Assembly: GCA_001938485.1 (NCBI GenBank)
Contig: MQRK01242274.1
Location: forward strand, 15,611-74,310
Reading direction: 5' to 3'
DNA from: Girardia tigrina
Taxonomy: Eukaryota
Length of the DNA: 58,700 nucleotides
The notes below the pieces were generated by a model. The model did no database searches. It saw nothing but the letters and a program-made list of their open reading frames with translations, and was not told the DNA's origin. The position numbers and the translations under genes are program-made. Numbering within the stretch: position 1 is the first letter of the stretch; each line of letters opens with the position of its first letter. Shown one piece after another: positions 1,357 through 58,700 of the stretch.

Positions 1357-4127
1357 TTGGGTTGGCCAAAAAGTAATTGCGTTTTTGAGTACGTCCTAAT
1401 AAAAAGCTTGGAAATATAAAACGATGTGATAAAATTTAAATTCAATTATATATTCTGAAACCTTAATTTTCAGACTATGTTTATACAAAATATTAATTGA
1501 TTTTGTTTTAATTTATTACTTAACCGTCAATTCAAAATGGAAAATAAAAATGAGCATATTCGTCATGTTTTGTTGCATTATTTTTTAAAAAAAGAAGGAA
1601 AATTAAAAAGCAAAAAAATTTGAAAAAGCAAAAATATATCAAAATTCCTGTATATGATTTAAAAATTATTTTAATATCTTCTAAGCTGTATAGCATTATA
1701 ATATCTCGCCTCCAATCATTTCAAAAGTTGTACAAATCTTTGCTCAAGACTGTAATTGTAATTTGAAATAAATGATTATTGAAGAAGCTTTGTTATTTAT
1801 TAGAGTCAAAGAGTTCATCAAGTTGAAACGTTGGGTCAGATAATTGAGCGCCGAACACCAAACAAATCCTTCTGACTTTGTGTCCAAAATCAAATTCAAT
1901 TAAATACCCAACAACACTATAATGTGACGTAGACATTGGTTAACAAGACAAACCTTTAAGATATAAAAATACAAATTCACACACAGTTCAGATGATTTAT
2001 TTTCAAGTCAAGTGAATAATATGCATAAATACTGAGTAATTAGTGTTTGCTTTACTCTAGCAAAGATACTCCGACTTCTTTTGACGATATTTTTGAATCT
2101 TTATCGTTCTAATTTCTGCAACGTCCATCACAACTCACTGCTATCAATGTTTTCTGTCACTTATAATCCAGTAATTTCTAATGCCACCTGGCCGTCATTA
2201 TCTACAGAGAAGAATACCTAAGTGATCACATAGTTTTGTGAAAATGCTGTGTAAGTCATTATTGACTTTGGAAGGCTAAGAATCGCGTTCCTCTCTGTAA
2301 GTGAAACCAGTCTCACGAAAACTGTTTGTAGTTGTGCCGATTTCACCAACTCGAGAAGCATTATTGGCAATAATAATTGCACCCAGAAGTTGAAATAGAA
2401 ATCGAAATCATGTGATTTGAAGTGCTTTAAAGCAAGTTTCTTGATGGTGCCCCGCTAAATTAGCTGAGTGCGTCATGTTGTTGCAATACATTTCGACTAC
2501 TTCTTTTCAATTAGAATTACACAAAACAGTGTTAATGCTGCAAAAGACTTAACTACGATGCATTTTCTAATGTACCTGACTCAAAATTGAATAAACTGGT
2601 AAAATAGCAATAGAAGAACTTATTCGATATTGTATGTTATTTCAATTTCGATCCGGATTTTATGCAGTTGTCATAACTAAGAAACATTGTCATATTAGGT
2701 TGTCTTGAAAGTTATTTCCAATGTTGGTTTAAAAAAATTACTAACGGTGATTTACACTTAAATGGTCTCGGTTTAAAGATCACGAAGAATCTCATCTTAC
2801 ATTAACAGTAAAGGAAATTGAGAATAGGAAATTGGAATTTTAGTCAACAATATAATGACATCTTCCAGAAATGGAAAAGGCAAATAAAGGTGTTTGGGTT
2901 CCATATTTTTGGATATACCTTAGTAACAAGGGCTAGTAATTTGTTCGACACAAAAGCTGAATTATCCTTATATGGGTGCACGACATTTAAATCTTGAAAT
3001 TTAAGTCTAGGAAATTAAATTTTAAAAAATGAAAAATTCAAGTAAATTTTAGAAATAAATTAATATAATAAAATATAAAATAATAGAATAAAATATAAAC
3101 ATAATTATAAATAGAAAGAAAATATAAATATAAATTAAAAAAAATGAAGAATTAGTTAATTTTCATTTCAATTAAAATATATTTTCAAAAAATTCCATCT
3201 GAAAGATGCACCACGCTCCGGTCGACCAGTTGAAGTTGATGACGACAAAATAACAGCACTGATCAAATCTAATCCACGTTTGACGACAAGAGAAGTTGCA
3301 GAGACTCTGGAAATATCAAAATCAAGTGTTGGAAGTCATTTAAAGAAACTTGGATTCGTCAGTAAACTCGACATGTGATTACCACATGAACTGAAAGAAA
3401 TTCATTTGGTGAAACGTATAAACATTTGTGATTCCATTTTGAAGCGAGAACAAAGTGTTCCATTTTTGAAGCGCTTGATTACAGGTGACGAAAAAGGGAT
3501 TGTTTACAACAATGTGGAACGCCGACGATCATGGACAAAACGTTGTGAGCCTGCCAAAACGATCCCAAAAGCAGAAATTCACCAAAAGAAAGTTATGCTT
3601 TCCGTCTGGTGGGATTTTAAGGGAATTGTGTTTTTTGAACTCCTTCCGAGGAATGAAACCATCAATTCAGACAGATATTGTGGTCAGCTGAAGAAATTGA
3701 CTCATTCAATTCAACAGGAACGTCCTGAATTGGCAAATCGAAAAGGAGTAGTAATTCAGCATGATAACGCAAGACCGCATACAAGTTTGACCACTCGCCA
3801 GAAACTTTTATCATTGGGTTGGAATATTTTGCCGCACCCACCGTATTCTCCAGACTCGGCCCCATCGAATTTTCACTGATTTAGATCACTGCAGAATTCC
3901 TTAAACAGAAAAACATTCACCCTGATGAATACATAAAATTGTTCCTAGACGGCCTTTTTGCTGACAAAGGCAAAGGTTTTTATGAATCAGGAATAATGAA
4001 GCTACCGGAAAGGTGGAAGAAAGTGATTGAAAATAATGGACAATATATCGTGTAAAAATATTTGTGCATCCATGTCACTTTTTGATAATAAATATTTTAG
4101 TAAAAAATGACTTTTTGGCCAACCCAT
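1357..4127 (+). mobile_element. Defective mariner (DD34D) interrupted by a ~1.6-kb unrelated segment
   Basis: TIRs TTGGGTTGGCCAAAAAGT / ACTTTTTGGCCAACCCA with TA flanks; ATG at 1537 (MENKNEHIRHVLL); resumes near 3190 (DAPRSGRP); ITGDEK, QHDNARPH, YSPDSAPSN; in-frame stops. Confidence 0.92.
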
Positions 4128-4385
4128 TATTTTCATTTATTTATTTCATTTTAATTAGTCGAACATTATTTTTTATTTATCTAAAATATAAATATGATTT
4201 TTAAAAAATATCAAAAATTTAAAGTTCACCAAAAGTAACCCCTACAAGTAGGAATAAGACAATACCACATTCTTTTATCAACGTTGTTCAATCTTTTCCT
4301 TGAGAGAATTGTTATGAAAGCAATATACGATCTGGACAATATTGGAACAGTGCAGCAATCTATTAGCCCTTTTTTCTACGGTCCT

Positions 4386-4622
4386 TAGTGATGGGGTCAC
4401 GGTTGCTATGGACACGGGAACCGTTACCATGGTTACAACCACCTTGGATCATTGTATCCGTAGCTAATGAAAAAGTCCCTTGGTTACCGTTGCTATGGTA
4501 ACCATGACGTTAGTTACCGTCACCAAGTGAATCGGAACGGTTGCTATGGTAACCTCGACCGTTTCAATGGCAACGGCCTCCCCCCGGGGGGCGTGGGGCC
4601 GAATGCCCATTTTCCTCCTACT
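4386..4622 (-). repeat. Truncated copy of the X-box-array repeat family (compare 57633)
   Basis: On the - strand it begins AGTAGGAGGAAAATG...CCCCCCGGGGG, then GTTGCTATGGTAAC-type motifs. Confidence 0.8.
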
Positions 4623-7682: not shown

Positions 7683-9050
7683 CAGGGTGTGACAAAAGTA
7701 ACGCAAAACATGAAATTTAGATACAATATACATGTAAAACATTAAATTTTTATTCAAACACAACTAAAAACGTCGTTTCAATTCATGTTCGAATAGTAAT
7801 TCAGTCTTCCGACTGGCACACCCTTTGGCACAACTCATTGTCAATTGATTGTACACCATCGGTGATTGCTGCGGTCAATTCCTCGATTGTTTGAGGATTT
7901 CTGTTGTACACCAAGTCTTTCAACGTTCCCCAAAGAAAAAAGTTCGATGGGGTAACATCAAGCGAACGCGGTGGCCATTCCAACCACGCCTTCCAATCCA
8001 CGAAGCTGGGAACTTTGCATTCAACCAGTTTCTCACAATAATTGCAAAATGTGGTGTTGCTCCGTCGTGCTGGAAAATGATTCGTTCACCACCTTGTATT
8101 CTCGACTCAATCTGAGGCCACAGCCATTCGGATAGCATTTAAAGGTAAGATGAACCTGACACAGTACCATCAAAGAAGGAGGGCCCAATAATTCCTTGAG
8201 AAGAAATGCCGCACCAGACTGTGACTCCTGGAAGATTTACTTCTTTTTCGATGATCTCGTGGGGATTGTTGCTACTCCAGTAGATGCAGTTGTGCCTGTT
8301 AATGTGACCGTTCAGCTTAAATACTGCCTCATCAGACCATAAGATGGAATTAACAAAGGAAACATTTTCTTCGGTATAAGCCAAAAATTCTTCTGCAAAG
8401 TGTAGGCGTCGATCTGAGTCGTCTTCATGGAGTGCATGAAATAATCTCGGGATGTATGGTTTCAAGCCCATGCTTCTTAGACAACGGTGGACACTTCGGT
8501 AAGAGATTTCATCACCGGAACCATCCAACTGACAAGCTATTCTGCGACACGAAGATGTTGGAGTAGCATTGACCTCTCTCAGCACAGCAGTTTGGATATT
8601 AAAATCATTTATTACGGAAGGTCGTCCTGACTTTGGAAGGTCACATACTGAGCCGGTGTTTTCAAACTTCTTCACGAGTCTCTGAATTGTTGATAGCTGA
8701 ATTGTCTCTTTATTTAACTCCACATTCAATTGCTTTGCTGTATTACTGTAATTGCTGCACTTATAAAAGTATTTCACGGCTTTAATTCTTTCTTCGGTTG
8801 ATAATCTGTTCTCCATTATNNNNNNNNNNNNNNNNNNNNNNNNNCTTTTAAATCCAATTTATGCTTAACACAAGCGATGAATCGATAAAGCAAATTTGAA
8901 ATTCAAATTTTTTATTTATAAGAAAGAAAAGTTGAAACATAGAAATCGGCTGAGAAATGAGTCAAACTAATCATAGATTCTGAACGACCTTAAAAGTATG
9001 ATTTAAAATTAAGTCGTTCCAAGATTTTGCGTTACTTTTGTCACACTATG
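7683..9050 (-). mobile_element. Defective Tc1/mariner-superfamily element (DD41D rosa/Visitor-like, DUF4817-type HTH)
   Basis: TIRs CAGGGTGTGACAAAAGTAACGCAAAA with TA duplication; ORF pieces 8139-8816, 7920-8138 and 7801-8001 carry WSDEAVF, QHDGATPH and WPPRSLDVTPSNFFLWG. Confidence 0.9.
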
Positions 9051-24582: not shown

Positions 24583-27500
24583 TTATTTTTTTATGAAGAC
24601 ATTTATGAAGACTAAAGCTTTGTGGTCTGTGCAGGCAATGAACCGTTTCCTGTATAAATATTGCTTAATATGTAAGACGTATTCATGAAGAGCCAGAAGT
24701 TCCTTTCCCGTGACACAATACCCCTTCTCATGCAAGGTCAGGTGTCTGGACCCGTATGCAATGACTGTTTCTTCTCCAGTTTCCGTCAATTGGCTTATCA
24801 CCGCACCGATTGCACTAAAACTAGCATCAGTGTCCAAGACAAAAGTACGATTTAATCGAGGATAACTCAAGATCAGAGCGTTGCACATAGCTTCTTTTAA
24901 TTTCTGGAAACTCTCTCGACATTCTGTTGTCTAATGCAATTTGTTACCGCATTTGATATTGCCACATGAAGTGGAATAGTAATCTTGGCGTGATCTCGAA
25001 TAAATCGGCGGTAATAGTTTGTTAGACCTAAAAATGACCGAAGTTGAGAAGAACAATGTGGTTCCTCCGCGTTTTCAATCTCTTTGATTTTCATATTATT
25101 CGTCCGAATACCTTCTGTATTTATGGTGTTACCCAAAAAAACTAACTCATCTTGATGAAACTGACATTTTTCCGGATTCATTTTTAACCCCCATTGACTT
25201 AACCGCCGAAATTCTTCTTTTAGAATATTGTCATGGTCTTCTAGTGTTTTACCATACACCATAATGTCATCTAAATAAACAAGTAATCCTCTGAAAATCA
25301 TACCTTCAAGCATATCATACATTAACCGCTGAAATGTCGCTGGTGCCGTTGACATACCGAATGACATCCGATTGAAGCAAAATTGTCCTTGTTTAAAACA
25401 GAACGCTGTACAAAGTTTAAATTCCTCCGACAAATCAACGTGGTAATATGCTTAACCTAAGTCTATTGATGAAAACCACGCAACTCTGACAAACAATCCA
25501 ACAGTAAATGAGTATTGGGCATCGGAAACGAAACTTTGTCCGTCACAGCATTTAACAAACGATATGCGACGCACATTCTTATGGAGCCATCTTTCTTAAA
25601 CACGATTACCAGCGGTGAGTTCCATGGACTTTTGCATGGCCGAATAAGGTTCGACTGCAATAAATTATTTATCATTTCATCAATCTTACTCTCCAAATGC
25701 ATCGGTTGTCGGCAGGGATGTTGCTTATAGGTGTATTTCTTGTCACAATGTGATGTTAGATCTTCAGAGTATGTCCCAAATCAAACTTTGAAGTCATGAA
25801 TATATTTCCAAATTTACAGATAAGATGTTGAAGAGCTTTCTGTTTGTGATTTTTGTACCGTTCCAGGGCTAAACTCGTCCGCTTCTCATCAGTATGAGTA
25901 TTCTTCAATAAATCTGCGTCAATATTATTAACTTCTAATAGTTGTACTCCAAACATCTGCATAGTGTCAATACCGCCAATGAACGGTGGATGTATCTTTT
26001 TTACAACGACCACCTTGATTTTCCTCAACTTTTTGTTCCAGCGAATATCTAATAAAACAACACCCATGGGCATTTCCGTTCCGGTCGAAAACACACCGTT
26101 TTTTTCGGGTTCAATATCATGTAAAATTAATTGATCCCGGATTGGGCCGTGTTGTGAATTTCATCTTAAACACATAAAATTGCCGAGGCCTCTGATAACT
26201 GCTGTTCTGCAAAAGACTACATTCCTTAAAACAATGACCAGATTTACCGCATATTAGACATTTATCCTTCAATGGGTATTAATGGAAAATTAATTATTAG
26301 AATTATTAGTAACCTTTGCAGCGGGTTTTTCCGCCCTAGCAGGGGCCCGTTCATTAAGGAGGCACGCCTGTTTTGGTAAGAAAAAGCCGTTGAGGATTTT
26401 TTTTAAANNNNNNNNNNNNNNNNNNNNNNNNNNNNNNNNNNNNNNNNNNNNNNNNNNNNNNNNNNNNNNNNNNNNNNNNNNNNNNNNNNNNNNNNNNNNN
26501 NNNNNNNNNNNNNNNNNNNNNNNNNNNNNNNNNNNNNNNNNNNNNNNNNNNNNNNNNNNNNNNNNNNNNNNNNNNNNNNNNNNNNNNNNNNTTATTATAT
26601 GAGTATTATATAAATATTATAATCATTTCTATTATTATATTCTATTATTATTATTTTATTATTATTTAAATAAAAGTTATTATCAAAATTATTATATATA
26701 AAAAAAATAAAAATTTAAAAAACTCACCGTTATAATAAAAAATTTTTCAAAAAATGAAAAGAGTCGACTTAGTCGACTTTCATTTTCATTGAAAAAAAAT
26801 GGGCAATTATGCCCTAATTCCAGCAATTACGCTGGGTCATAAATTTATAATTAATAATTCATGGGCATGAAGCCCGATCTAAAGTAATTTAAATAATGGG
26901 CAATTAAGCCCAGCTGTTAAATTATTTAAAAAATAATTAAAAAAAATAAAGTAAAAGTTTCTTTTAAATGTTAAATTAGGGAGAATTCTAAATTTAGCTG
27001 TTTTTTTATATAATAATAAAACGGGTATAAATACCCTAAAATTTAAATTAAAAAATAAAAGTTTGGTAAAAACGAAATTTTTATTGAAAAGTTAAATTCT
27101 TTTAAAAAGATTTTTCAAATATTTTGGAATCCTCCATTGTTAATAATACGTTGTATTTTTGGATTGGAAGAATTTTCTAATTCAATTGAATAAAGTTTTT
27201 AAAACAGAATTCATTTGATTTATTACTATTGTTACTATTTGAGAAATAATCTCTGACGAGATTCATTCAAAGAAAATAAAAACCTCAAGAGAGGATTGAC
27301 CAAATTAATATTTTCATTCAAAGTTGGAAGAACCATTTGAAAGGAGTCAGATGATTATATATTAAAAAACTTCTTTAAAGTGGTTAATAAAAGAATAATT
27401 TTGAATACCCAACACTTCCATTTTCTCATCTTCCGAGATCTCTTGGTTCTCGTAGACTTTCGCCAGTGTCTTCATAACTTCTCTCTTCATTTCCGGTTTC

Positions 27501-29756: not shown

Positions 29757-32700
29757 GTCGGGTTTTCTTTTGCCTTTATTTTTATAATTTTATTTTAATT
29801 ATTTATAATTTTATTTTAATCATTTTAAATATTTTTTATCATTTTAATATAATTAATTTTATTTAAAATATTTTTATAATTTTTTGTAATATTTTATTTT
29901 ATAATTTGTATTAATTTTATTTTTATGATTTTTAATAATTTTTGAAATATTTTAATCAATTTTTATAATTTATTTATTTTTTGAATATTTTCAAATAATA
30001 TTTGTAATTTTATTTTCTAATTAATTTGTTTTATTTTTTTACAATTTTTTGTAATTATAATTTCTAAATAATTTTAATTTATTCTGTTAACACTGTTTTA
30101 ATAATTTTGTTTTTTTTATTATTTTTATTTAATTTTGTTAATTTAATTTTATTTATTTTATTTATTTAATTTTGTTTTATAATATTATTTTTAATCATTT
30201 ATTATATTTTTTTTATTTTTTAAAATGTTCTAAAACTTTTTTAAAATTTTTTTTCTTATTTTAAAATAATTTTAATTAATTTTTTTAATAATTTGTTTTC
30301 TTTTTTTTAATATTTTAAAATAAATATTTATAATTAAAACGTATTATTTACTATAAATTTTTATAATAATAATAATTTTGTTTTACTTTTAATATTTTAT
30401 GTAAATTTATTTTATTAATTTTAAATCAAAAATATTTTTAATTTAATATTTTTTAAAGTAATTATTTATAGCAATATTTTATTTTTCTAATTTTATTTTA
30501 TTTTTTACTATTTACGATATTTTATAATGATTTTTTTATTTTTAAAATAAATAAAATTTTATTTTTTATTCTTAATATTATTTTTGATTGTTTTAATATT
30601 TTGTGAAAAATTGCTAAAAATTAATGTAATACATTTATTTTTATTTAATTTTTCTTTTGGTTAAAATTGTTATTTTATTCTATAAATAATATTGGATAAA
30701 TATTTTCATATTTTATATGCAATAAAAAATAATATATAGAGATATGTTGTGCCGAATTTGCGCAATTGCCAAAGTCTCGAACTCCCCAATTTTTTAAAAA
30801 ATTTGTAATTCAATTTTGAAATTGATATTAATATTTAATATGCAAATATATCGATTTAATATGAAAAAATTTTAAAATACAAATTTTTGCAATTCAGCTT
30901 GCAATAAGGAAGAACTTTTATTAGCTGTGAATCAAATTTTACATTTGGAATCTTTGTGTAATAAAAACTTTTTTCATATTTAATTTATTTTTTTCATATT
31001 AAATTGATATTTTTTCATATTAAATCGATATTTTTTTATATTAAATCAATATTTTTCATATTAATTCGATATTTTTCATATTAAATCGATATTTTTCATG
31101 TTAAATCGATATTTTTCATATTGAATCGATATTTTTCATATTAAATCGATATTTTTTATATTAAATCGATATTTTTATATTAAATCAATATTTTTCATAT
31201 TAATTCGATATTTTTCATATTAAATCGATATTTTTTATATTAAATCGATATTTTTCATATTAAATAGATATTTTTTCATATTAAATCGATATTTTTTCAT
31301 ATTAAATCGATATTTTTTCCTTATTAAATCGATATTTTTTCATATTAAATCGATATTTTTCCATATTACATCGTTATTTTTTCATATTAAATCGATATTT
31401 TTTTATATTAAATCAATATTTTTCATATTAATTCGATATTTTTCATATTAAATCGATATTTTTCATGTTAAATCGATATTTTTCATATTGAATCGATATT
31501 TTTCATATTAAATCGATATTTATATTAAATCGATATTTTTCATATTAAATAGATATTTTTTCATATTAAATCGATATTTTTTCATATTAAATTGATATTT
31601 TTTCATATTAAATCGATATTTTTTTATATTAAATCAATATTTTTCATATTAATTCGATATTTTTCATATTAAATCGATATTTTTCATGTTAAATCGATAT
31701 TTTTCATATTGAATCGATATTTTTCATATTAAATCGATATTTATATTAAATCGATATTTTTCATATTAAATAGATATTTTTTCATATTAAATTGATATTT
31801 TTTTCATAATAAATTGATATTTTTTCATATTAAATGATATTTTTTCATATTAAATTGATATTTTTTTTAATAATAAATTGATATTTTTTCATATTAAATG
31901 ATATTTTTTCATATTAAATTGATATTTTTTTCATAATAAATTGATATTTTTTTCATATTAAATTGATATTTTTTTCATAATAAATTGATATTTTTTTCAT
32001 ATTAAATTGATATTTTTCAAAATAAATTGATAATTTTTCATACTTAATTGAGGTATTTTTTAAATTAAATCGATATTTTTCATATTTACTTTATATTTTT
32101 CATATTAATACACAAAGTTTTCTTTTTAAATTGAGATATATTCATTTTAAAATGAAAAATTTTCATGTAGTTAGTGAATTCGGATAAAATTCACTAGTTC
32201 ACAAATAATACTAATTCACTATTTCAGCAAACTGTTGCGAAATTCGCGAATTCGGTAATTACACAAATACGGCATAACACACATTAAAAATCATTTTTAT
32301 GATTTCAAAAGTTTTTTAATAAAATAAAATTTAAAATATTTTTAAATAAATTTTAAATTTTTTATTGTTTCTTTTATTGTTTTTGGTTAATTTATTATTA
32401 AAATAATTTGAAGTTTATGCAAAACGATTGCAATAAATATTCTTAAAATTAATTGATCGAAAAATTGTACACTCAAATTACATAACGTATAATAAAAGCA
32501 AAAATAAATAACGATAAAATTCGAGATAATTAGGTAAAATAAAACAATTAAAATATTTTTAGAATAATAATTGAACATTTCGGAAAATTATTCTTTTTCA
32601 GATAACATAGATAATATGAAAAACAATTATTACACTTTTACTATAAAATGTATATATATATACATTTCCCTTGGAAAACAAAGGCGGTGGCAACAAAATT

Positions 32701-35700: not shown

Positions 35701-38429
35701 AGGCGTCACTCATTTCATTCAAGGCTTCGGGTCATTATCACGAATGCGTCGGTCAGAAGTTACAGTGAGAATGAAAGCATAAACTTCTGTAATAATTCTG
35801 TATCCCCCCAAACAAGTTCGAAAGGAAAGAGATCTTATTAACTTTTATTTATTTGTGCTCTTTAATGTTTTCTTCCTTTTCCTGAGAGATAAAATGTAAA
35901 AAATTTCATACAGTTAAGGGTACATTGAACAATTTATGTACACGAATACGGATTAAAAAAGAAGCAAAGGAAGAAAACAAAAAAAGTTCCGAGACATGTA
36001 CAATAATCGATTTCTTAAAAAAATAACCAAAATTATTTTTCCAAAATATATATATTAGGTTGGCAAAAGTAATCCATTATTTTAATTAATTATTTATCGA
36101 TCAAACAATTTTTTTTCTTTTTTTTATTCAGTTCTGAGTTACAGGGTGTTAAAAATGGAAGTCAACAAAGAAAAATTCGGTACATTTTACAGTTTTTATT
36201 CGATAGAGGCGAAAATGCAAGCCAGGCGACTGTTATTGTGAATGGTGTTTATGGTGCCAATATTGTAACAGCCAATATTACACGCAATTTGGGTTTCGAC
36301 GATTCCGTGGAAGCATTTTTGGTGCTAAAGATGCACCTCGCACAGGCAGGCCTATCATTGAAAATGACGATAAAATCTCGGCAATGATCATTGGCGATGC
36401 GAGAGCGAGCGCAGCATTGTGGCCGCGGCGGGTTGGCGATGGTGGGTGGGTCGCGGGACGCGGGGGGCTCAAAACAATAACCTCACTGGTCTGTGATTGT
36501 ACGGTTTGTGAATAGCAAATGTCAGATTCGGTTGGTCTTCGGTTTTTGACGTAAATATACAATCTATGCATATATTCCAGGCCTTTGTATATAATTTCCC
36601 ATCTCTTCACATATGCCGGTAGAAAATCATTAATATCGACCATAATCAATTGCTTTTGAATTTCATCGATAAATTTTTCGATTAAAGTAAATGAGTCCAA
36701 ATATAAAGATTCGGCATAAACTTCAGTTCCATCTTTCTTTGCGAAACACACTTCATACACATCACTAAAACTGGAATTCCATTGCGATTTCGATACATCT
36801 TCACATCACAAAACATTCAAAGCCACATCGTTTAACCGACTCCAAATATTCATCATAATTAATTGTTTTAGGTCGTTTGCGGCAAAATCTTCCATATTCA
36901 TTTTTACATTAAGCAAAAATCAAAATTCGCGCAGAAAAACAATATTTTATTTAATTCGAATAAACAAACTAATTGCGGCAAATTCACTCTCAAACAATTT
37001 CAAAATGTAAAAAAACTCGAATCTTTACAAACATAAATAAACAGATGAAATATAATCGATAAAAATTGTTTTTAATTTATCATTTCACATTAATCGATCT
37101 CAGAGAAAATTATTTCATCGGTTTATTATTTAATATACACAATTAAATTAGAACGGTTTCTTGTTTGAGGTTTTTAAATGTTATCTCTTACGTCAAATCA
37201 TGCACGAATTACTCGAATCNNNNNNNNNNNNNNNNNNNNNNNNNNNNNNNNNNNNNNNNNNNNNNNNNNNNNNNNNNNNNNNNNNNNNNNNNNNNNNNNN
37301 NNNNNNNNNCAAAATTTTGAGTTTTTGACGAATATTTTCGTTCCATTTTTCAATTGATCAGAAATTTTGATTATCGAAAGGTTTGTTATTGGTGGAAATT
37401 CGATTTGTTTTCGTATATCGTTGGATTGGCTTTGTTTGTTTTTTTTAAATAGTTCACGTTCGATATTAGATATTTTGTTTTTCAATTTCTCATTTTTCAG
37501 GAATTTTTTTGAAATATAATTTTTGGGGTTAACTTCGATATTGGCCCCCCGAATGTGAATCGAACAATCATAGTTGACCGGCATGTTAGTAGTCGTAGCA
37601 TGGATCAGGAGCTGAAGATCGACCACAAAACGGTTTTAAACCATTTGGACAAAGCAGGCTTCAAAAAGAAACTTGATGTTTGTGTTCCACACCAATTAAC
37701 ACCAAAGAATATGATGGATCGAATTTCCATCTGCAAAGCCTTGGCCAAACAAAATGAAATCGATCAATTTCTTAACCGGATGGTTACTGGGGATAATAAA
37801 TGGGTCACATACGACAATATTGTACGAAAACAATCGTGGTCAAAGCACGATGAAGCACCTCAAACGGTCGCCAAACCAGGACTAACGGCCAGGAAGGTTG
37901 TACTGTGTATTTGGTGGGACTGGAAAGGAATCATAGTAAATGTACTATGAGTTGCTTCCTTAAGGCCAAACACTAAATTCAGATCTGTACTGTCAACAAC
38001 TGGACCGTTTGAAGAAAGCAATTGATGAGAAACGACCAGAATTAGCCAACAGAAGAGGTGTTGTGTTCCATCACGACAACGCCAGACCACATACGTCTGT
38101 AGTGACTCGCCAGAAACTCAGGGAGCTTGGTTGGGTAGTTTTAATGCATCCACCATATAGTCCGGACCTCGCACCAAGCGATTAACACCTTTTTCTCGTA
38201 TTGCAAAATTTCCTGAGTGATAAGAAATTTGGATCAATAGAAGATTGTGAAAATCGATTTCTACAGTTTTTCGTCAATAAGGACCAAAATTTCTACTGAG
38301 GCATTACCTTCAAAATGCCAACTAATTATACAACAAAGTGGTACATATTTGACTCCAAGAGGAGAATCCGAAACATGTTAAATAAAGTTTTGAATTTCAC
38401 GCCAAAATAATGGATTTCTTTTCCCCAAC

Positions 38430-38478
<49 letters not shown>

Positions 38479-41400
38479 ATAAAAAATCATATTCGATTGG
38501 ATATTTAAATCAATATTGTCGAACATAAATTAAAATATAAATTGAAGAAAATAATTTTCAAATTCTGTGCTATCGATTTCATGATTATTGAAAAACAGTA
38601 ACGTGTGAGGCCTTATCAATATGTTCAATGGATCCGAAAATTAATATTGAAGCTTTACACTCAACCTATACATTTTCCAATAGAACCTTAATGACATAAT
38701 TGATCACACAATTTTTTGTTATATGGACTACATAAGGAAGTGAAAAAAACAAAAAAACACAGGTATTCAGAGCGCCTTCCCTTGTTTGGAACACACATTT
38801 TCAGTCTGTCTTAAATAGATCCAAACGCATTTCTACAGTCTTACATGCATAGATTCTATTTGTTCAGACATCTCGCATCTCTTTTGGTCAAGAGACATCA
38901 TTGATGGAAGTAAACTTTATCTTTTAGTTTAGAGAAAACAATTGTAGGTCTTTAATTGGGTCGTCCTTCAATCAATCCTGAATTAAATGAAAATTTAGCG
39001 TTACTGCGTAACACTCTCTGTACATACAACGTATTATTTAATATTTTAACCTTAAAAACTAGTTCCAGGAATTGATTCATTTTAGTTGTCGTTTTCGTGA
39101 GCTAATAGTAGAAATACTGTCCTAGCTCAACGTGTTAATAAATGTGTAAATAAATCTTTATTATTCAAATCAAATTTATCTGTTATGTATAATGTCAAAT
39201 AATCGTTATTCTTGGAAAACTTTTTTCCCACAAATCGCACAAGTGATTTTTTAAATTAAAAACTAGGGCAACTGGTATAGGGAAATCAAAAAACGACTGG
39301 GAGTTTTACATGGTGTGATAACACGAATCAGAAAATTGTGAAAGTAAAAGAGAGTGGTAGCATGTAGGTTCTGAGGATGGTGGAGCTCCTTACTACTGAA
39401 GTTAGAAAGTCTAAGAATGTAATAAAGATAAAAATGGACGTTTCTTGATTGGGCCTCGTAAAGCCCAGATCTGAATCGAATTAGAATCAATTGCCTCTCA
39501 TTATAAAATGATCTCAAGAAATTATTATTTTCAAATTTAGATTTCTCTGAGAATATCTTGTTGATTACACTCAAACCTGCTTTAATGCAATTTTCTTGTG
39601 TGATACATAATTTTTGTGTACGAGATCGCGCAAAAAAGTCGTACAAATAAAAAAGCGCATAAAAGCAGGTCTTAGTGTAATTATTTTATTTTTTACTAAA
39701 ATGCACGAACTTTTATACTAACCAAAAACTTCTAACTGTAATACAGTTTTACACATTTTTATTCCCGTTTCATGTATATATACCAACAAAACATTTGAGC
39801 CTCAAAAGCTGCAAATCTGTATTTTCACGTTACGTTTTATATTTTTCTCCTGCTCTAACCGACATTCGGTTCTAAATGAACAAAACACTTGCTGCATACA
39901 CGTATGACATTCTCAAACTGCTCAACACAAATAAAACCGTAGCACACAAACTTCACTGACACAGTCAAATGGTTAACACAAGTCTTCACAAACTTATGAA
40001 TAATGCATCCAAAAGTGAGTCGACCGAAACCGATATTCAAATTAATATTTAAAATTTATTATTACATCTTTATTGAAAAGTGTTTTTTCTTTGCATTTTC
40101 TAATGCTTAAAACTTAATTCAGACAGATTTGGTTCTGCAAATATTTTTTCTAAAAGCACTCTGATTAATTTAATTTTTAATTCAAAATTATAATTCTTAA
40201 TTGAATAAAATTATCATAAAATAATTGAATCAGGGTCCGTTCATTGCTAAAGTAACAATGGCAGCTTATGAGTGCGGCAGCACTAATTTCCCTGAACCAC
40301 CATACCCAGATCAATTCATTTGTCCCGATGAAATAACTAAGAGCGAGATGAAGACACTGATTGTGGTGCGCAAGATTCTTCTCGAATCAATGCTGTGGGT
40401 TGGGATACTTTAATTATTGATCATTCGATCAATTATTCACAAATCGATCAATTATCGATCGGTGTTTAATTACAGGGTTTCGGAACTGCAGTTGGAGAAC
40501 TACCTCCATATTTTATGGCGCGTGCATCCGCTCTCAGTGGCTCCAATGATTCCCTGAGTACCGACACCGCCGAGTCCGCCTGGCACAAGCGTGCTCAAGA
40601 TGCCATGCGGACAATCGTAAAGCGGGTCGGATTTGTAGGCATTGTCTTGTGTGCATCTGTCCCTAACCCCCTATTCGACTTGGCCGGTATGACCTGCGGA
40701 CACTTCTTGGTGCCGTTTTCTACTTTCTTTGGTGCCACGGTGCTGGGAAAAGCAGTGAACAAGATGCTGCTTCAGATGGCGTTCGTTGTGCTCATATTCT
40801 CTCAGGACAAGGTTGCCTGGATACAGGCCAACATCCGGTGAGAGTCTTTGCGTCAATTCATTCATAATAGTAATAATAAAGTGCTAAAATTATCGAACAA
40901 ACTAAATTAAACTCAACATAGAAAAAATATTGATTGAAAAAAGACATTCGTTTTGAAATTAGTTTTTTAATCGGTTTTTAGAGATTTGTTGATTTATTTG
41001 TATTTACATTTGGAGTTTGTTTGTAAAATGCTTTATTGGACGAAGGAAAAATAGAGAAATACGTGGCGATGATCGATCAATGACCTCATTTACAAGTTCT
41101 TCGAAAAACAAGTTCTTCGAACGATAAATTCTTCGAATGCACTTTTTTTTCGAAAATATCTTCTTACAGAAATATTATTAAAAAATTAATATTTTTTGAA
41201 AAAATAATTATCGATATTGTTATAGTTACAAAATTAATTAATTAAAAATTGATAAAACGAAATCCGGATGATAATGTTCTTTTAAAAACAACACTCATCC
41301 ATTAAAAAATATATTTATTGACAATATAATTCGACGGATCTACCGTCATCTTCAGGTCACTAATTAATAATCAATTCACCTGTATATAAATACAAAAATG

Positions 41401-44400
41401 ATGATTATGTAATCGATTGCATGAAAGCACGCTAATCATAAATTCTAAATAAGCTGGTTGAGACTGCCGATTGAACATTGATTTTAGGGCAACGTGAAAT
41501 AATTATCAATGCTCCACTCGACACTCTCTCCCAATAACTGTCACAATGCTCACATAATTTTGAAATTATCAATATTAACATCACATTTACATTTTTTCCT
41601 ATGTTCTGCAATATTCCTCTTTCTCCCTTTTCGACCATGTTCTTGAATTCGTTTACAGAGTGACGGGCAGTCTCTCCAATGATTGTGGCATCGCACCCAT
41701 TACATTTATATTCATAAACAATATAAGAACACAGTGTTAAAGGTGTAGTAGATTTATTACTGAACATATTTTGAATTTTATGAGATCGTGATATAATTTT
41801 TAAATTTAATTCATTGTTAGTTGCTTTTAACAATGCAGTTTTAAAGTTTTTAAATCCTTCAGAATGAGGTACAATTAAACAATATTTAGGCATATTATTC
41901 ATATCTAATGATCCTTCGATTTCTTTCTTAGATCCATCAGGAGAAGCCAAACTCTGATTTTTCGAAAAATCTGTCAAAATTATTCCATCTGCTGTTTCGT
42001 TTTTTAATTTTTCTAGAAAAGATTCTGGATCTTTTGGTTGAAAGAAAATCTCTTAGTTACGAGACTGGAATTTATAGGAAGCAAACTGATACGGGGTTAT
42101 ATACTTCACCAGATAGTTTTTGTGAACTTAAGAATAAAAGAAACATGATTAAAGGTTTAATTTATCGCTCCTGGTCGTTGCCTTCCATTTTTGTTAAATC
42201 TGTAGAAAGTCTTAATAAACTAAGTTCGTTGTTAAATCAGAGTGGTTATTCTAAATCTTTTCTGGAAAAATTAATAAAGGAAACAGTAGATAAAATACTT
42301 TTGAAAGATTTTTCGAAAAATCAGAGTTTGGCTTCTCCTGATGGATCTAAGAAAGAAATCATAGGATCATTAGATATGAATAATATGCCTAAATATTGTT
42401 TAGTTGTACCTTATTCTGAAGGATTTAAAAACTTTAAAAATGCATTGTTAAAAGCAACTAACGATGAATTAAATTTAAAAATTGTATCACGATCTCATAA
42501 AATTCAAAATATGTTCAGTAATAAATCGATTACACCTTTAACACTGTGTTCTTATATTGTTTATGAATATAAATGTAATGGGTGCGATGCCACAATCATT
42601 GGAGAGACTGCCCGTCACTCTGTAAAAGAATTCAAGAACATGGTCGAAAAGAGAGTAACAGTAATATAGCAGAACACAGGAATGAATGTAAATGTGATGT
42701 TAATTTTGATAATTTCAAAATTATGTGAGCATTGTGACAGTTATTGGGAGAGAGTGTCATGTGGAGCATTGTTAATTAGGTCACGTTGCCCTAAAATCAA
42801 TGTTTCGCGTGTAGACTTGACGTTACAGGAGGATTTCCTAAATTTCTACAGCACGTTTTAATTCATCAAATCGTTTACAAACATTTTATTTATCTCTCAT
42901 TTATTTATTTACGTTTTGCACAATTTTTAACTTTGTCAATCACTCGTAATTTACAACTCGTAAATTGTTACACAAATTGACAATAGAAAATTTAAAAATT
43001 TTTTTATCACTTTAAAAATCTATATTCTATAATAATCAGTGTATGAAGCATTATATGTCAATGAAAGATCCATCGTTCTTTCTGCGCTCCTTCTAAGATT
43101 CGACTAAGCTTGATTTGCAAAGATATCTCGTTGATTATTCTCAAGGTATCGGAGGGACAAAAAATTCATTGGAAAATTAAAATCGTCACATCTTTCTGGA
43201 TCTGCTTGTACCGGGAATCGTTAGTCATACGACTTTATCTTCGATTCTGAGATGTTGAAAGATGATGGTGTTTCATCCACGATTATAGTACTCTTGAGGA
43301 ACTAGGCGCCCAGTATTCCTCCTCAATCCCGATGATGATTCGGTGTTCTTCCCTCTCCATTTAGATACACTCTTTGCAACATAATTTAACATTGCTTAAC
43401 TCAAATTGGAAATGGAACCGACCGATAGGAATCAATGCCACTTGTGGAACCATGTCCCAATGACTTGTTGATTAATATTCGAGGGCCTTATGTACTAACG
43501 AAAACTTTGGAAAAATTCAAAAAGAATATTTTAAGAAATAATTTTTTCGTAGACTTTCTTTATGAAGAGAGAAATTTTAATCAATAATTATTTGGCAATG
43601 AAAAAAATAAACTATTAACCATAAACTATATTAGTGTTTGTGCTATTATGAATGAGAGATACGTATCTGATTGGTAAATCTCATTGACCTTTGACCGGTC
43701 ACGAATGAAATGGAACCACCGCTTCATAACAGCGATACTGACCGATGACCTGTGCTGAGTCTAGGGGTTGGATACGTTCTCTATTGACGTTCTTACTACA
43801 CTAGTGGTTTTCGTCAAGCTAATTCCATAACATTATCGCTGTTTTTATTTACCCTAACAATCGCTTCTCGGAAATGGAGTCATTTTTATTCCTATAGAAA
43901 TTGATCATTTTAATTCTAAAAATAATTTTCATTTAGGTGAATAAATTTGAATACAATTGGAAAATTATCAAACAAAAAATTTCTAAGCCAATCAAAATTT
44001 ATTAATTTCGACGATTTAACCGTCATGGCCTGAACTAATGATTTTTCAAACGAAATTTACTTATATAATGCAGTTAATGATTACGCAATCAACACGTATC
44101 AGTACATCATTTAAATATTCCCAACAAAGTTGTAGAGAATCCAGATTGAACGTTAATTTTAGGATCCAAAGACCTTATGTATAACGCTTCATATGCCACT
44201 CTCTCCCAAAAAATTTTTAAATTCAGTACAAAGATGTTACTTCCACCTTGGAGAGACTTGAGACTCATCTCTTTAAGAGAATCCAGGAACACAGTCGCAA
44301 TGAAGGTGGAAGTAACATTGCAGGACATAGAAGACATTGTAAAGGAGATATAAATTCAGAACACCTTAAAATTCTGTGCACTCAATTTAAAAATTATCGG

Positions 44401-50400: not shown

Positions 50401-53400
50401 ATTAATCTATAAATCATCTGAAAATGTCTGCAAGTCGCCAAAAAAATATCAATGCATATTTGTGGGGAAAAACTAAATGATAGAAAATTTAAATTGAGCC
50501 CAGTCCGTTTTGTACATAGAATGTCGATATATTGTTTAGAAGAAAATATTTTTAAATAATAAAAAATCACATAAAAATATAATTTTATTCTCTGATTGGA
50601 ATTAGTTTTATAATAATATTGAATAAAACATTGTCTTTATTTTTATTTTTTTTAATGTTAAATAAATTAATAGTAAAATTTAGAAAAAAATAGTAAAAAA
50701 TTAAATAAATATCAAAAATATTTTTCAATATTATTATGAAAATAATTCCAAAACAGAGAATAAAATAATATTTTTTTATTATTTATAAATATTTTCTTAA
50801 AAACAAAATATTAACATTGCATCTACAAAACGGATTGGGCTTCATTTAAATGTTCTATAATTTATTTTTTCACCAAAAAGATGCATTGAAATTTTTCGCG
50901 ACTTCCAGACATTTTCAGCTTAATTATAGGTTAATTTAAACCCTTTTTGAAAAATTTTCAATTAATAATATTCATTTTACTAATATTAATTGAAAATTTT
51001 TCAAAAATGGGCTTACATTAACCTACCTTGATCTTGGATTCTTTTACATAGGTGAGGTGTTAGAAACATTAGGTTAAGAAGCAGAAAGAGAAAGCAAATC
51101 ACGCTATGGTATTGGATTGTTTCCAGTTTCTAAGGACTGAGTGCGAAAAATATTACTAACCTTAAATCTCTATAACTCGAACATACATTCACAAATTACA
51201 AAATACTAATCAAGTGGGCTGTTGTTTGAATAAATGAAAATAAAATTCATTTTAGCATTCATTCTTCATGAATATGTCGTCAGAAACAGGAAGTCGCGAA
51301 TTAATAATTCGTTTATTTCAAGAAAGTCCACAATCAAGTCAGTTTCTAACGTTATTACAAACTTCAATGAGAACTTGAGCGTTTTCAAAAAAAATGGTTC
51401 GGGAAGAAGAAAGGGCTTTCGTGTACACAGAACGTGAAGAAAGTAAAGGCTCTGTTAGAGAGAAATCCTCGTCTATTAAATCGAAAACTAAATATCAAAA
51501 GGCCAATTGTAAGGAGAAAACATTTCGGAAAACTAAACAGTCTATAGGTTTAAAAACGTATAAAGTTCAAACAGTACCAGACCGGAACGCTAACAAGACT
51601 TGTGTGCTCTGCGAGTTTTCCCAGCTACCCGGACAAGAATTTTACTCTGCAACTAAGAGAGGAGTTGAAGACAAATTGAGAAGCAAGAAAAAATCTAAGT
51701 TTTCAAAAAAATTTCTTGTTTTGCAGTCTATATTTGGATGCGGGAAAAAGAGTAAATGCTTTGTCACATCTGGCACAATAAACACAGAATTCTATGTGAA
51801 GGAGTGCTTGCAAAAGCGTTTCTTACCATTCATAAGTCAGCCCGGAGGTCTTACTTTCTTTTGATCGGATATGCCATCGTGCTACTATGGTAAGGCAGCC
51901 AAGAAGTGGTGCGAAGACAACGTCGATTTGGTGCAAAGAAAGGCAAACGCTCCAAAGATATTGGGCTCTGGTAAAAATGCAATTAAAGACGACAAACAAA
52001 ATGGCACAGACAATTGCAGATTTTCAGAACAAGTGGAATGATGCGGCCAAAAACGTGACAGGAACTACATTTGGCAAGCTAATAGCAGGCATTCCAGAAA
52101 AGCTCGTAGAATTTATTAAAAAAAAGAAATAATCTTTCTTAGCTTACTACAGTGCGTTCCAAGAGTCTGTTCGCATCCATAAAAATCATCACTTATACAA
52201 ATTTCCTAAGTAAAAAGACGATGAAGTGGAAGTAAATATTATATTTACAAATAAAAATGTTATTTTTAATATTTTATGTGGTATCCTTTCATCTTGATTA
52301 TTGAAGACACCCTTCGCGGCATCGAATAGACAAGTCGACGACATAAAGAACTTGGTATGTTGTACCATAACTTTTGTATTTCTGTCCACATTTTCTCTGA
52401 ATTCAAAGTATCCATATTATTTATTTTTCTCTTTATAATACCCCACAAATTCTCAATTGGGTTTACATCTGGTGAGTTGGCAGGCCAATCAAGAATATTT
52501 ATCTTCTTTGTTTTCAAAAAAGACACTGATGATGCTGATCGATGGCAAGGCGCATTGTCTTGCTGAAATATAAAATTTGGAAGAGGGAATACCAAGCATT
52601 GCCCTGTAATCTCTATGTTATTGACATTTAGGTCTTGATAGTTCTTCCAATTTAAATTTCCGTTTATCCGTTTGAAGATACCAACACCAAATCTGGAGAA
52701 AGATCCCCATACACGAACTTTAGCACCGTGTTGGAGGACCTTCTTAGTACAAATGTGACTAAGCCTTTCATTGTCAAACCTTCTAACGATTTCGCTACGA
52801 GTGTGACTATATGTACGGAACATAGATTCATCGCTAAAAACTACATTCGACCACTTATCGATGTCCCAATTTTGTTTATCCCGAGCCCATTCAACTCTTC
52901 TTTTTCGTTGCTTTCCATTCAATAAAGGCTCGTAAACAGCATAATGACTTTTTAAGCCGTACTTTATCAAAATTCTATTTACTGCACTTCGTGATTCATG
53001 TATCATTCCAGCTGCATTGAAAGCTCCTGTTATTTTACTTATCGACATGCTCCTATTTTTCATGCATATACGGCGAATAATTCTTTCAGAACGTTTTGGT
53101 AATTTTGAAGGTCGTCCACTACGTTTTTCATCTTCATTTGTACCTACTGTCTTGAACTTAGGTACAATTTTTTGAATGCCCCGCTTTGAAACAATAATAC
53201 CATGTCTAACCTTCATAATTTCTTGTATCCGACCAGTTGAATGACCCTCGTTCATTAATTCTACAATAATAATCCTAAACCTTATATCTATATTTCGAGT
53301 TGTCATTGAATCTAAAAGACATTTAATTAATTCATTTTAAACAAAGATGGTCTTGATATTTAATATTACTTCTGGAACGCACTGTAATGTAATTTTGAAT

Positions 53401-57632: not shown

Positions 57633-58260
57633 AGTAGGGGAAAAATGAGAGTTCTCCACCACCCCCCCCCCGGGGGGTCGTAACTAGTTACCGTGGTTGC
57701 CATGGCAACGGTCGCGGTTACCATGGCAACGGTTGCGATCACCATAGCAACGGTCGCGATCACCTTAGGAACGGTCGCGGTTACCATGGCAACGGTCGCG
57801 ATCACCTTAGCAACGCTTCTGATTGGCTGCCGGGTCCCTAGCAACGGTCGCGATCACCTTGGCAACGCTTCTGATTGACCGCCCGGTTCCCTAGCAACGG
57901 TCGCGATCACCTTAGAAACGCTTCTGATTGGTTCCTTGGTTCCCTAGTAACGGTCGCGAAACTGGGGGCGATCGCCCCCATTCACTACAGCAACTCTTCT
58001 GATTGGTCGACGGTTCCCTAGCAACGGTCGCGATCGTCATAGCAACGGTCGCGAGCACCTTAGCAACGGTTCCAGTTCACTTGGAAAGGCTTCTGATTGG
58101 TTCCTAGTTCCCTAACAACGGTCACGGTTACCATCGCAACGTAACCAGTTACCGCGCACGGTTACCATGGCCTAGGCAGCAACGGTCACGGTTACCATGG
58201 CCTAGACAGCAACGGTCACCATCACCATAGCCTAGGCAGCAACGCTTCTGATTAGTCGAC
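57633..58260 (+). repeat. GC-rich ~21/52-bp tandem array of RFX X-box and CCAAT (Y-box) motifs; probable transposon terminus
   Basis: Starts AGTAGGGGAAAAATG; GTTGCCATGGCAAC at 57696-57709; repeated CC(A/T)T(A/G)GCAAC and TTCTGATTGG. Confidence 0.85.
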
Positions 58261-58265
58261 GGCTG

Positions 58266-58585
58266 TTATTGGGTTATGTCTATATATAGACAGTGGGGAA
58301 TCACCCATACTGGGTTGGGTTGGGTTGGGTTATTGGGTTATTGGGTTATGTCTATATATAGACAGTGGGGAATCACCCATACTGGGTTTGGTTGGGTTGG
58401 GTTATTGGGTTATTGGGTTATGTCTATATATAGACAGTGGGGAATCACCCATACTGGGTTGGGTTGGGTTATTGGGTTATTGGGTTATTGGGTTATGTCT
58501 ATATATAGGCAGTGAGGAATCACCCATACTGGGTTGGGTTGGGTTGGGTTATTGGGTTATGTCTATATATAGACAGTGGGGAATG
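58266..58585 (+). repeat. Tandem ~65-75-bp units: palindrome, hairpin and (TTGGG)n tract
   Basis: TGTCTATATATAGACA occurs 5 times (one variant), each followed by GTGGGGAAT; the first four continue CACCCATACT and GGGTT repeats. Confidence 0.95.
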
Positions 58586-58700
58586 GTTTAGTACCAAAAT
58601 GGAGGTCTTTTAGACAATCTTGAGTAAATCCTCTATAATTGATATTACACAGCATTTTGTTAAAAATGTACGACAGTATTCATTTCAATTCAAAATCCTA

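Follow-up and report, generated by a model that had tools for sequence, protein, structure and literature searches.

Conserved X-box/CCAAT array in the terminal inverted repeats of a Polinton-derived element in the Girardia tigrina genome

Termini, terminal inverted repeats (TIRs), target site duplications (TSDs) and gene content identify the repeat terminus at the end of the analysed window (the whole stretch of 58,700 nt from Girardia tigrina) as the outer TIR of a minimal Polinton-derived element with two genes, one for a protein-primed DNA polymerase B (PolB) and one for a predicted single-stranded DNA-binding protein (SSB). The X-box and CCAAT-box (Y-box) motifs in this TIR, together with the gap between them, are conserved across copies. 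We propose with moderate confidence that the phased X-box/CCAAT array recruits host RFX and NF-Y, thereby opening and activating the element.

Terminus and array of the window copy

In the window, the family is represented by a truncated outer TIR (57633..58586, forward strand) that has no inner TIR, genes or partner end in the contig; the contig ends with the window, and the copy is a stub stopping at about 58586. It begins with the terminal motif AGTAGGGGAAAAATG (57633..57647), a Polinton-type AGTAG end that is presumed to be the origin and the integrase site. The flanks are unrelated among the compared copies, and the sharp repeat terminus at 57633 is therefore real. A short C-run/G-run palindrome (57659..57676) that was found in most termini follows, and then a 21-nt tandem array of X-box palindromes and half-sites (57696..57814), with full boxes at 57696, 57717 and 57780. 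These features and the other components of the array described below lie on the forward strand.

The preliminary description of this DNA had pointed to a perfect 14-bp X-box palindrome, which is present at 57696-57709, and to three half-sites (ending at 57793, 57845 and 57898) that are each followed 25 nt later by CTGATTG(G/A); these coordinates hold. The three pairs belong to 52/53-nt units (57784..57959) composed of a distal X half-site, 25 nt and a Y box, with Y words at 57819, 57871 and 57924; the second Y word is CTGATTGA, and its CCAAT is therefore broken. A nearer half-site, degenerate in the third case, sits 4 nt ahead of each of these Y words, so that the gap of 25 nt equals the 21-nt tandem period plus 4, in agreement with the earlier caution that the spacing derives partly from the tandem unit. 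The Y box at 57999..58006 has half-sites at 4 and 47 nt and no X partner at 24/25 nt. A fourth X-25-Y module, missing from the preliminary description and carrying a spacer of a different type, was located at 58059..58100 (half-site end 58067, Y at 58093), and the 30-nt units at 58157..58255 include a broken Y word at 58248 with half-sites at 4 and 34 nt. The tandem unit lengths in the window array were 21, 53, 30 and 72 nt. In total, 16 strict X half-sites were counted in 57633..58260, and the X-box pattern GTNRCCNNRGYAAC matched nine times in the window versus 0.03 times expected from shuffles. A second, diverged terminus of the family (4322..4622, reverse strand) contains X boxes and no Y box. 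A search of the window against Rfam matched no family.

The 72-nt tandem units (58265..58584) hold nine further ATTGG words and five palindromic TATA elements and constitute a TIR variant, which was observed in 8 of 115 termini and is exemplified by the window copy and by copies L014, L019, L002, L006 and L008. Its unit has one to three reverse CCAAT words adjoining a palindromic TATA, and it displaces most X-Y units; it forms a second, promoter-like array at the equivalent position of the TIR.

Identity, gene content and relatives of the element

The end motif had 14,718 exact matches genome-wide versus 11 for the control. Exact 6-bp target duplications flank L014 (5,111 bp), L418 (8,992 bp) and L435 (4,015 bp); a 6-bp TSD was found in three of the four inward-facing pairs with true termini, and the fourth, 2.4 kb in length, lacks a duplication. 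Because of false left ends, three loose end-pairs (two on C247944 and one alternative in L435) were set aside. TIRs with AG..CT ends were found, and the ends read AGTAGG rather than the (AGT)2 given in the available part of PMC8097293. AG..CT ends, TIRs and 6-bp duplications are marks of Polintons according to the accessible portions of PMC8097293 and bioRxiv 2023.08.22.554363. The TIR is about 2.3 kb long and takes in the 3' end of PolB (L073 4630-4880, L418 2090-2450), and an antisense copy of this end therefore lies in the opposite TIR. The earlier view of the stretch as the terminus of a mobile element is confirmed by the sharp end, the TIRs and the target duplications of family copies. 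A Helitron or Helentron identity was rejected on the basis of the long TIRs, the TSDs and PolB.

A protein-primed PolB (PF03175 plus EndoVII PF02945) lies between both TIRs in 12 loci and is broken by stops or frameshifts in the copies seen, L418 included. The family PolB shares 50-61% identity with the PolBs of animal Polintons and adintoviruses. In a PolB tree, which was midpoint rooted for drawing only, thus pointing to no donor, and left out five complete-Polinton loci with no fragment longer than 200 aa, the family stands apart from the four alignable complete Polintons of the genome and groups with animal Polintons. No integrase, capsid or ATPase was detected in 11 of the 12 TIR-bracketed loci by tblastn with the ORFs of the genome's complete Polintons; in the twelfth, L244, an insertion that disrupts PolB contains an integrase-like piece. 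Several of the 12 loci have N gaps. L418 is gap-free, and tblastn and an ORF inventory revealed no integrase, capsid, packaging ATPase or protease in it; its gene content is PolB plus one divergent 184-aa ORF (ORF2). Judged from 12 bracketed loci and from the gap-free L418, the element appears to be minimal, that is, integrase-less and capsid-less, and a minimal replicon with PolB and SSB and no integrase would therefore need an integrase in trans.

ORF2 had 155 scored matches among 1,894 candidates genome-wide and 29 relatives in the representative library, and no match was found in Pfam, PHROG, PDB sequences or Atlas. A structural model from eight sequences was poor (pLDDT 57), and the core model reached a pLDDT of 89.6. 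The best fold matches were the Enc34 SSB (Z 9.3, rmsd 3.0, 109 aligned), DUF2815 (Z 9.1) and T7 gp2.5 (Z 8.8), with the next unrelated structure at Z 5.6; Foldseek again placed these three first, but with E>0.09. ORF2 is predicted to adopt the SSB fold (OB fold) of the T7 gp2.5/Enc34 type. The pN/pS ratios were 0.17-0.35 for PolB and 0.39-0.53 for ORF2 in 7 of 12 comparisons, with higher values among near-identical copies; among diverged copies, both genes are under purifying selection.

Fold-back derivatives of the family are common. Gene-less derivatives (4-5 kb) and stubs like that in the window ride on the ends of the family. Copies L014, L004, L019, L054 and L078 are inserted into PolB genes that belong to other Polintons or to the family itself; a target preference for other Polintons was considered and dropped, as the numbers fit random insertion. 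Contigs from four sequencing runs, each of a different study (one leaf-litter metatranscriptome and three organism labels), covered 27-30 of the 30 bins of the outer TIR; contigs do not demonstrate transcription. Sampled words of the family PolB (L073 4900-8400) were common to runs under six organism labels and to leaf-litter metatranscriptomes, and this sharing may reflect related hosts or horizontal spread; small shares of words are not taken as evidence.

Compared with the accessible portions of PMC8097293, PMC6431247 and bioRxiv 2023.08.22.554363, the family resembles Polintons/Mavericks (adintoviruses, with EndoVII-type PolB) in its AGTAG-starting AG..CT ends, long TIRs, 6-bp TSD and protein-primed PolB. 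It differs from Polintons, so far as these portions describe them, in the lack of integrase, capsid, ATPase and protease genes between its TIRs, in its length of 8-9 kb versus 13-25 kb, in a TIR that holds the 3' end of PolB, in its predicted SSB-fold gene and in its thousands of copies. Linear plasmids and transpovirons, as presented in the available part of PMC11161782, also have replication genes between TIRs and no virion genes, whereas the family is integrated in nuclear DNA with 6-bp TSDs, Polinton ends and a PolB that groups with animal Polintons. Mobile Polintons lacking PolB, which are the reverse case, appear in the accessible part of bioRxiv 2025.02.07.637071. The literature searched, which excludes Repbase and most subscription papers, contained no account of Polinton TIRs with RFX/NF-Y arrays or of Polintons with PolB and SSB only; the excluded sources may hold the family.

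The genome also contains complete Polintons, which have AGTAGT/AGTAAT ends and encode integrase, capsid and ATPase; the X/Y array occurs in the family and is absent from them. Five other Polinton-type ends of the genome showed no X array. The same was observed in 82 related PolB loci from metagenomes/IMG-VR, a result that is uninformative because only one locus reached its TIRs. An IMG/VR search for X-(18-32)-Y gave 30 scattered matches, three of them at 25 nt, which were taken as chance, and a search there for tandem full X boxes gave no match. The TIRs of the other Polintons are palindromic, with the first ~60 nt recurring inverted ~330 nt inward (L219 3864-4270, L221 4361-4792, L226 7068-7465 and L069 5725-6049), and one such family has a CCAAT at position 27. 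Integrases of complete Polintons carry an in-frame N-terminal phospholipase A2-like domain, PF08398 (L221 5591-6955, L223 4194-5729 and L229 7114-8157). An ORF matching the viral fusion glycoprotein family PF24664 was found in an unrelated flank (L211 1438-2007).

Conservation and spacing of the array across copies

The full 14-bp X palindrome was found in 108 of 115 termini. All 58 complete gap-free outer zones had at least three half-sites; a Y box was present in 42 of them and absent from 16, and their architectures ranged from 233 to 650 nt. When Y boxes were picked on the Y word only, 120 of 160 had an exact distal half-site at 24/25 nt (the gap was tested at 24 and 25 nt only), compared with 57 of 160 for the nearer slot, and in a held-out set of 23 termini the corresponding values were 19 of 24 and 7 of 24 Y boxes. 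Genome-wide, X-(22-28)-Y had 12,273 matches versus 73 for the control, and the gap was 24 or 25 nt in 98 of the first 100 matches listed (counted by eye). At least three types of spacer retain the 24/25-nt gap, including one from which the nearer half-site has disappeared, and whole unit types place X at 4/34 or 3/46 nt from Y. Helical phasing was observed for 84% of 1,775 distances and is not counted as independent evidence.

At the level of single bases, 146 units picked on two X sites were compared; 53 of the 159 X..X slots of the first unit set were not Y units (5-6 mismatches) and had been dropped. ATTGG departs in 17 of 730 bases (2.3%), the spacer in 10-11% and the next four bases in 42%; common ancestry makes these unit counts non-independent. 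Some parts of the spacer vary no more than the Y box does. The sole widely shared Y variant keeps CCAAT, and three broken variants occur in three termini each. The first two positions past the Y word switch between C and T, with pyrimidines in 145 of 146 units; the preference of NF-Y predicts pyrimidines directly after the Y word, and C/T changes are the commonest mutations. A test of shared versus rare alleles looked clean in a first, smaller set (0 of 8 Y columns versus 20 of 31) and was not significant in the larger set (p=0.12 and 0.11). As to the check proposed earlier, whether the X and Y words exceed the spacer in conservation, both words are preserved more strongly than the bases around them in the various subfamilies.

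Such an array could have arisen as a by-product of a GC-rich subterminal minisatellite undergoing slippage and recombination; in that case, the 21-nt palindrome would be X-like by chance, one ancestral CCAAT would have been multiplied and 25 would be simply 21+4. This explanation accommodates the gap of period plus 4, the spread of architectures from 233 to 650 nt, the 16 of 58 outer zones with no Y box, the Fisher p values of the allele test (0.11-0.12) and the other Polinton ends, which manage with no array. However, units with unlike spacers share the gap, and it persists where the nearer half-site has been lost; directly after Y the bases vary by 42%, against 2% for ATTGG; held-out termini gave a replication; and at least three half-sites persist in every zone. 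We regard a by-product as rather unlikely.

Host factors and interpretation of the array

The RFX and NF-Y genes on which the earlier reading depended were found in the genome, namely, an RFX1-3-type gene, an RFX5/7-type gene (L034; 63.5 bits to RFX5 versus 36.2 to RFX1) and an NF-YA gene, NF-YA being the subunit searched for NF-Y. The best matches of an RFX exon were one cestode and one trematode. The RFXAP profile PF15289 had no match in the genome in a weak search that does not imply absence.

In HLA-DRA, 25 nt lie between the X and Y words, as the preliminary description stated, and a second, 47-nt MHC-II box has 24 nt (supplement of PMC4381081, counted by eye). The available part of this source describes the MHC-II X-Y spacing as conserved and the spacer as variable, and according to the accessible part of PMC4889920, RFX5 and NF-Y partner widely outside MHC II. 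Within the compass of these two sources, the array is like the MHC class II X-Y enhanceosome (RFX5-RFXAP-RFXANK, CREB, NF-Y and CIITA) in half-site, Y word, orientation, 25/24-nt gap and variable spacer. It is unlike the enhanceosome in that the array has no X2/CRE or W box, is multimerised and belongs to an invertebrate host with no RFXAP match; a single TGACG/CGTCA was found in the whole of 57633..58260, outside the spacer slot between X and Y. The array thus resembles the MHC-II X-Y module without being a member of it.

In the proposed life cycle, PolB and SSB of the element would replicate it from the AGTAG ends, and complete Polintons would supply, in trans, the integrase for its insertion. 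As an enhancer, the array would serve the divergently oriented PolB and SSB genes located a few kb further inside, probably in stem cells or the germ line; RFX and NF-Y have germ-line roles. The interpretation in the preliminary description is partly supported as a whole, and the binding, enhancer activity and effect on nearby genes that it envisages remain putative.

Less probable than a by-product is that the constrained word is read by host MYB together with NF-Y (a cell-cycle module) or by C2H2-like fingers of the element's own PolB. The MYB consensus is YAACNG. The X half-sites run into AACGG/AACCG and each overlaps a MYB-type word, 13 YAACGG words occur in 57633..58260, and the bases after RGCAAC (884 sites; second base G in 86%, first base G or C) fit YAACNG; two C2H2-like Cys/His finger-like motifs were read by eye in the N-terminal frame of PolB. 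On the other hand, conservation of the CC and T preceding the half-site amounts to 86-94%, MYB has no need of the 14-bp X palindrome in 108 of 115 termini, and ORF2, with its predicted SSB fold, is not expected to be a sequence-specific binder.

RFX and NF-Y might instead bind as origin helpers for protein-primed initiation rather than as a transcriptional enhancer, a similarly improbable reading by analogy with adenovirus. In adenovirus ITRs, NFI and Oct-1 sites help protein-primed initiation, bending or clearing the DNA beside the terminus. The array is comparable in that host-factor motifs are multiplied at an element end, and different in being a spaced module of two factors located within a Polinton TIR. 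It starts ~60 nt from both ends, its Y words all point one way, it lies several kb from gene starts, and the gene-less copies L014 and L435 retain it, all of which would suit an origin helper. Its length of hundreds of nt, MHC-II-like gap and TATA/CCAAT variant look promoter-like, however, and location in the TIR puts the array on both ends whatever its function.

Recruitment of RFX and NF-Y leads to a broader and more tentative proposal, which we hold to be possible but doubtful: an integrase-less, capsid-less, self-replicating Polinton satellite may have reached thousands of copies via a multimerised RFX/NF-Y enhanceosome with MHC-II geometry, the RFX5/7-NF-Y partnership at 24-25 nt may be an ancient bilaterian module predating MHC and CIITA, and ~12,000 such modules may have been spread through a flatworm genome. 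The family, whose abundance greatly exceeds that usual for Polintons, establishes a Polinton-derived class intermediate between autonomous and gene-less elements; this class appears to keep the replication kit and borrow only integration. If bound, the array would provide a natural, thousands-fold test of the vertebrate MHC-II RFX-NF-Y spacing rules in an invertebrate, and a route for selfish DNA to time its activity to germ-line or stem cells.

Elsewhere in the window, an exon of a VMP1-like host gene (Pfam VTT domain) lies at 40470-40841. Mariner/Tc1-like, Gypsy-like and Penelope-like (inverted pair) remnants and a 20-nt satellite were observed at 3379-3879, 8139-8858, 24583-26160, 37513-37950, 41474-42804, 52266-53336 and 30969-32108, the family names being assigned from translations read by eye.
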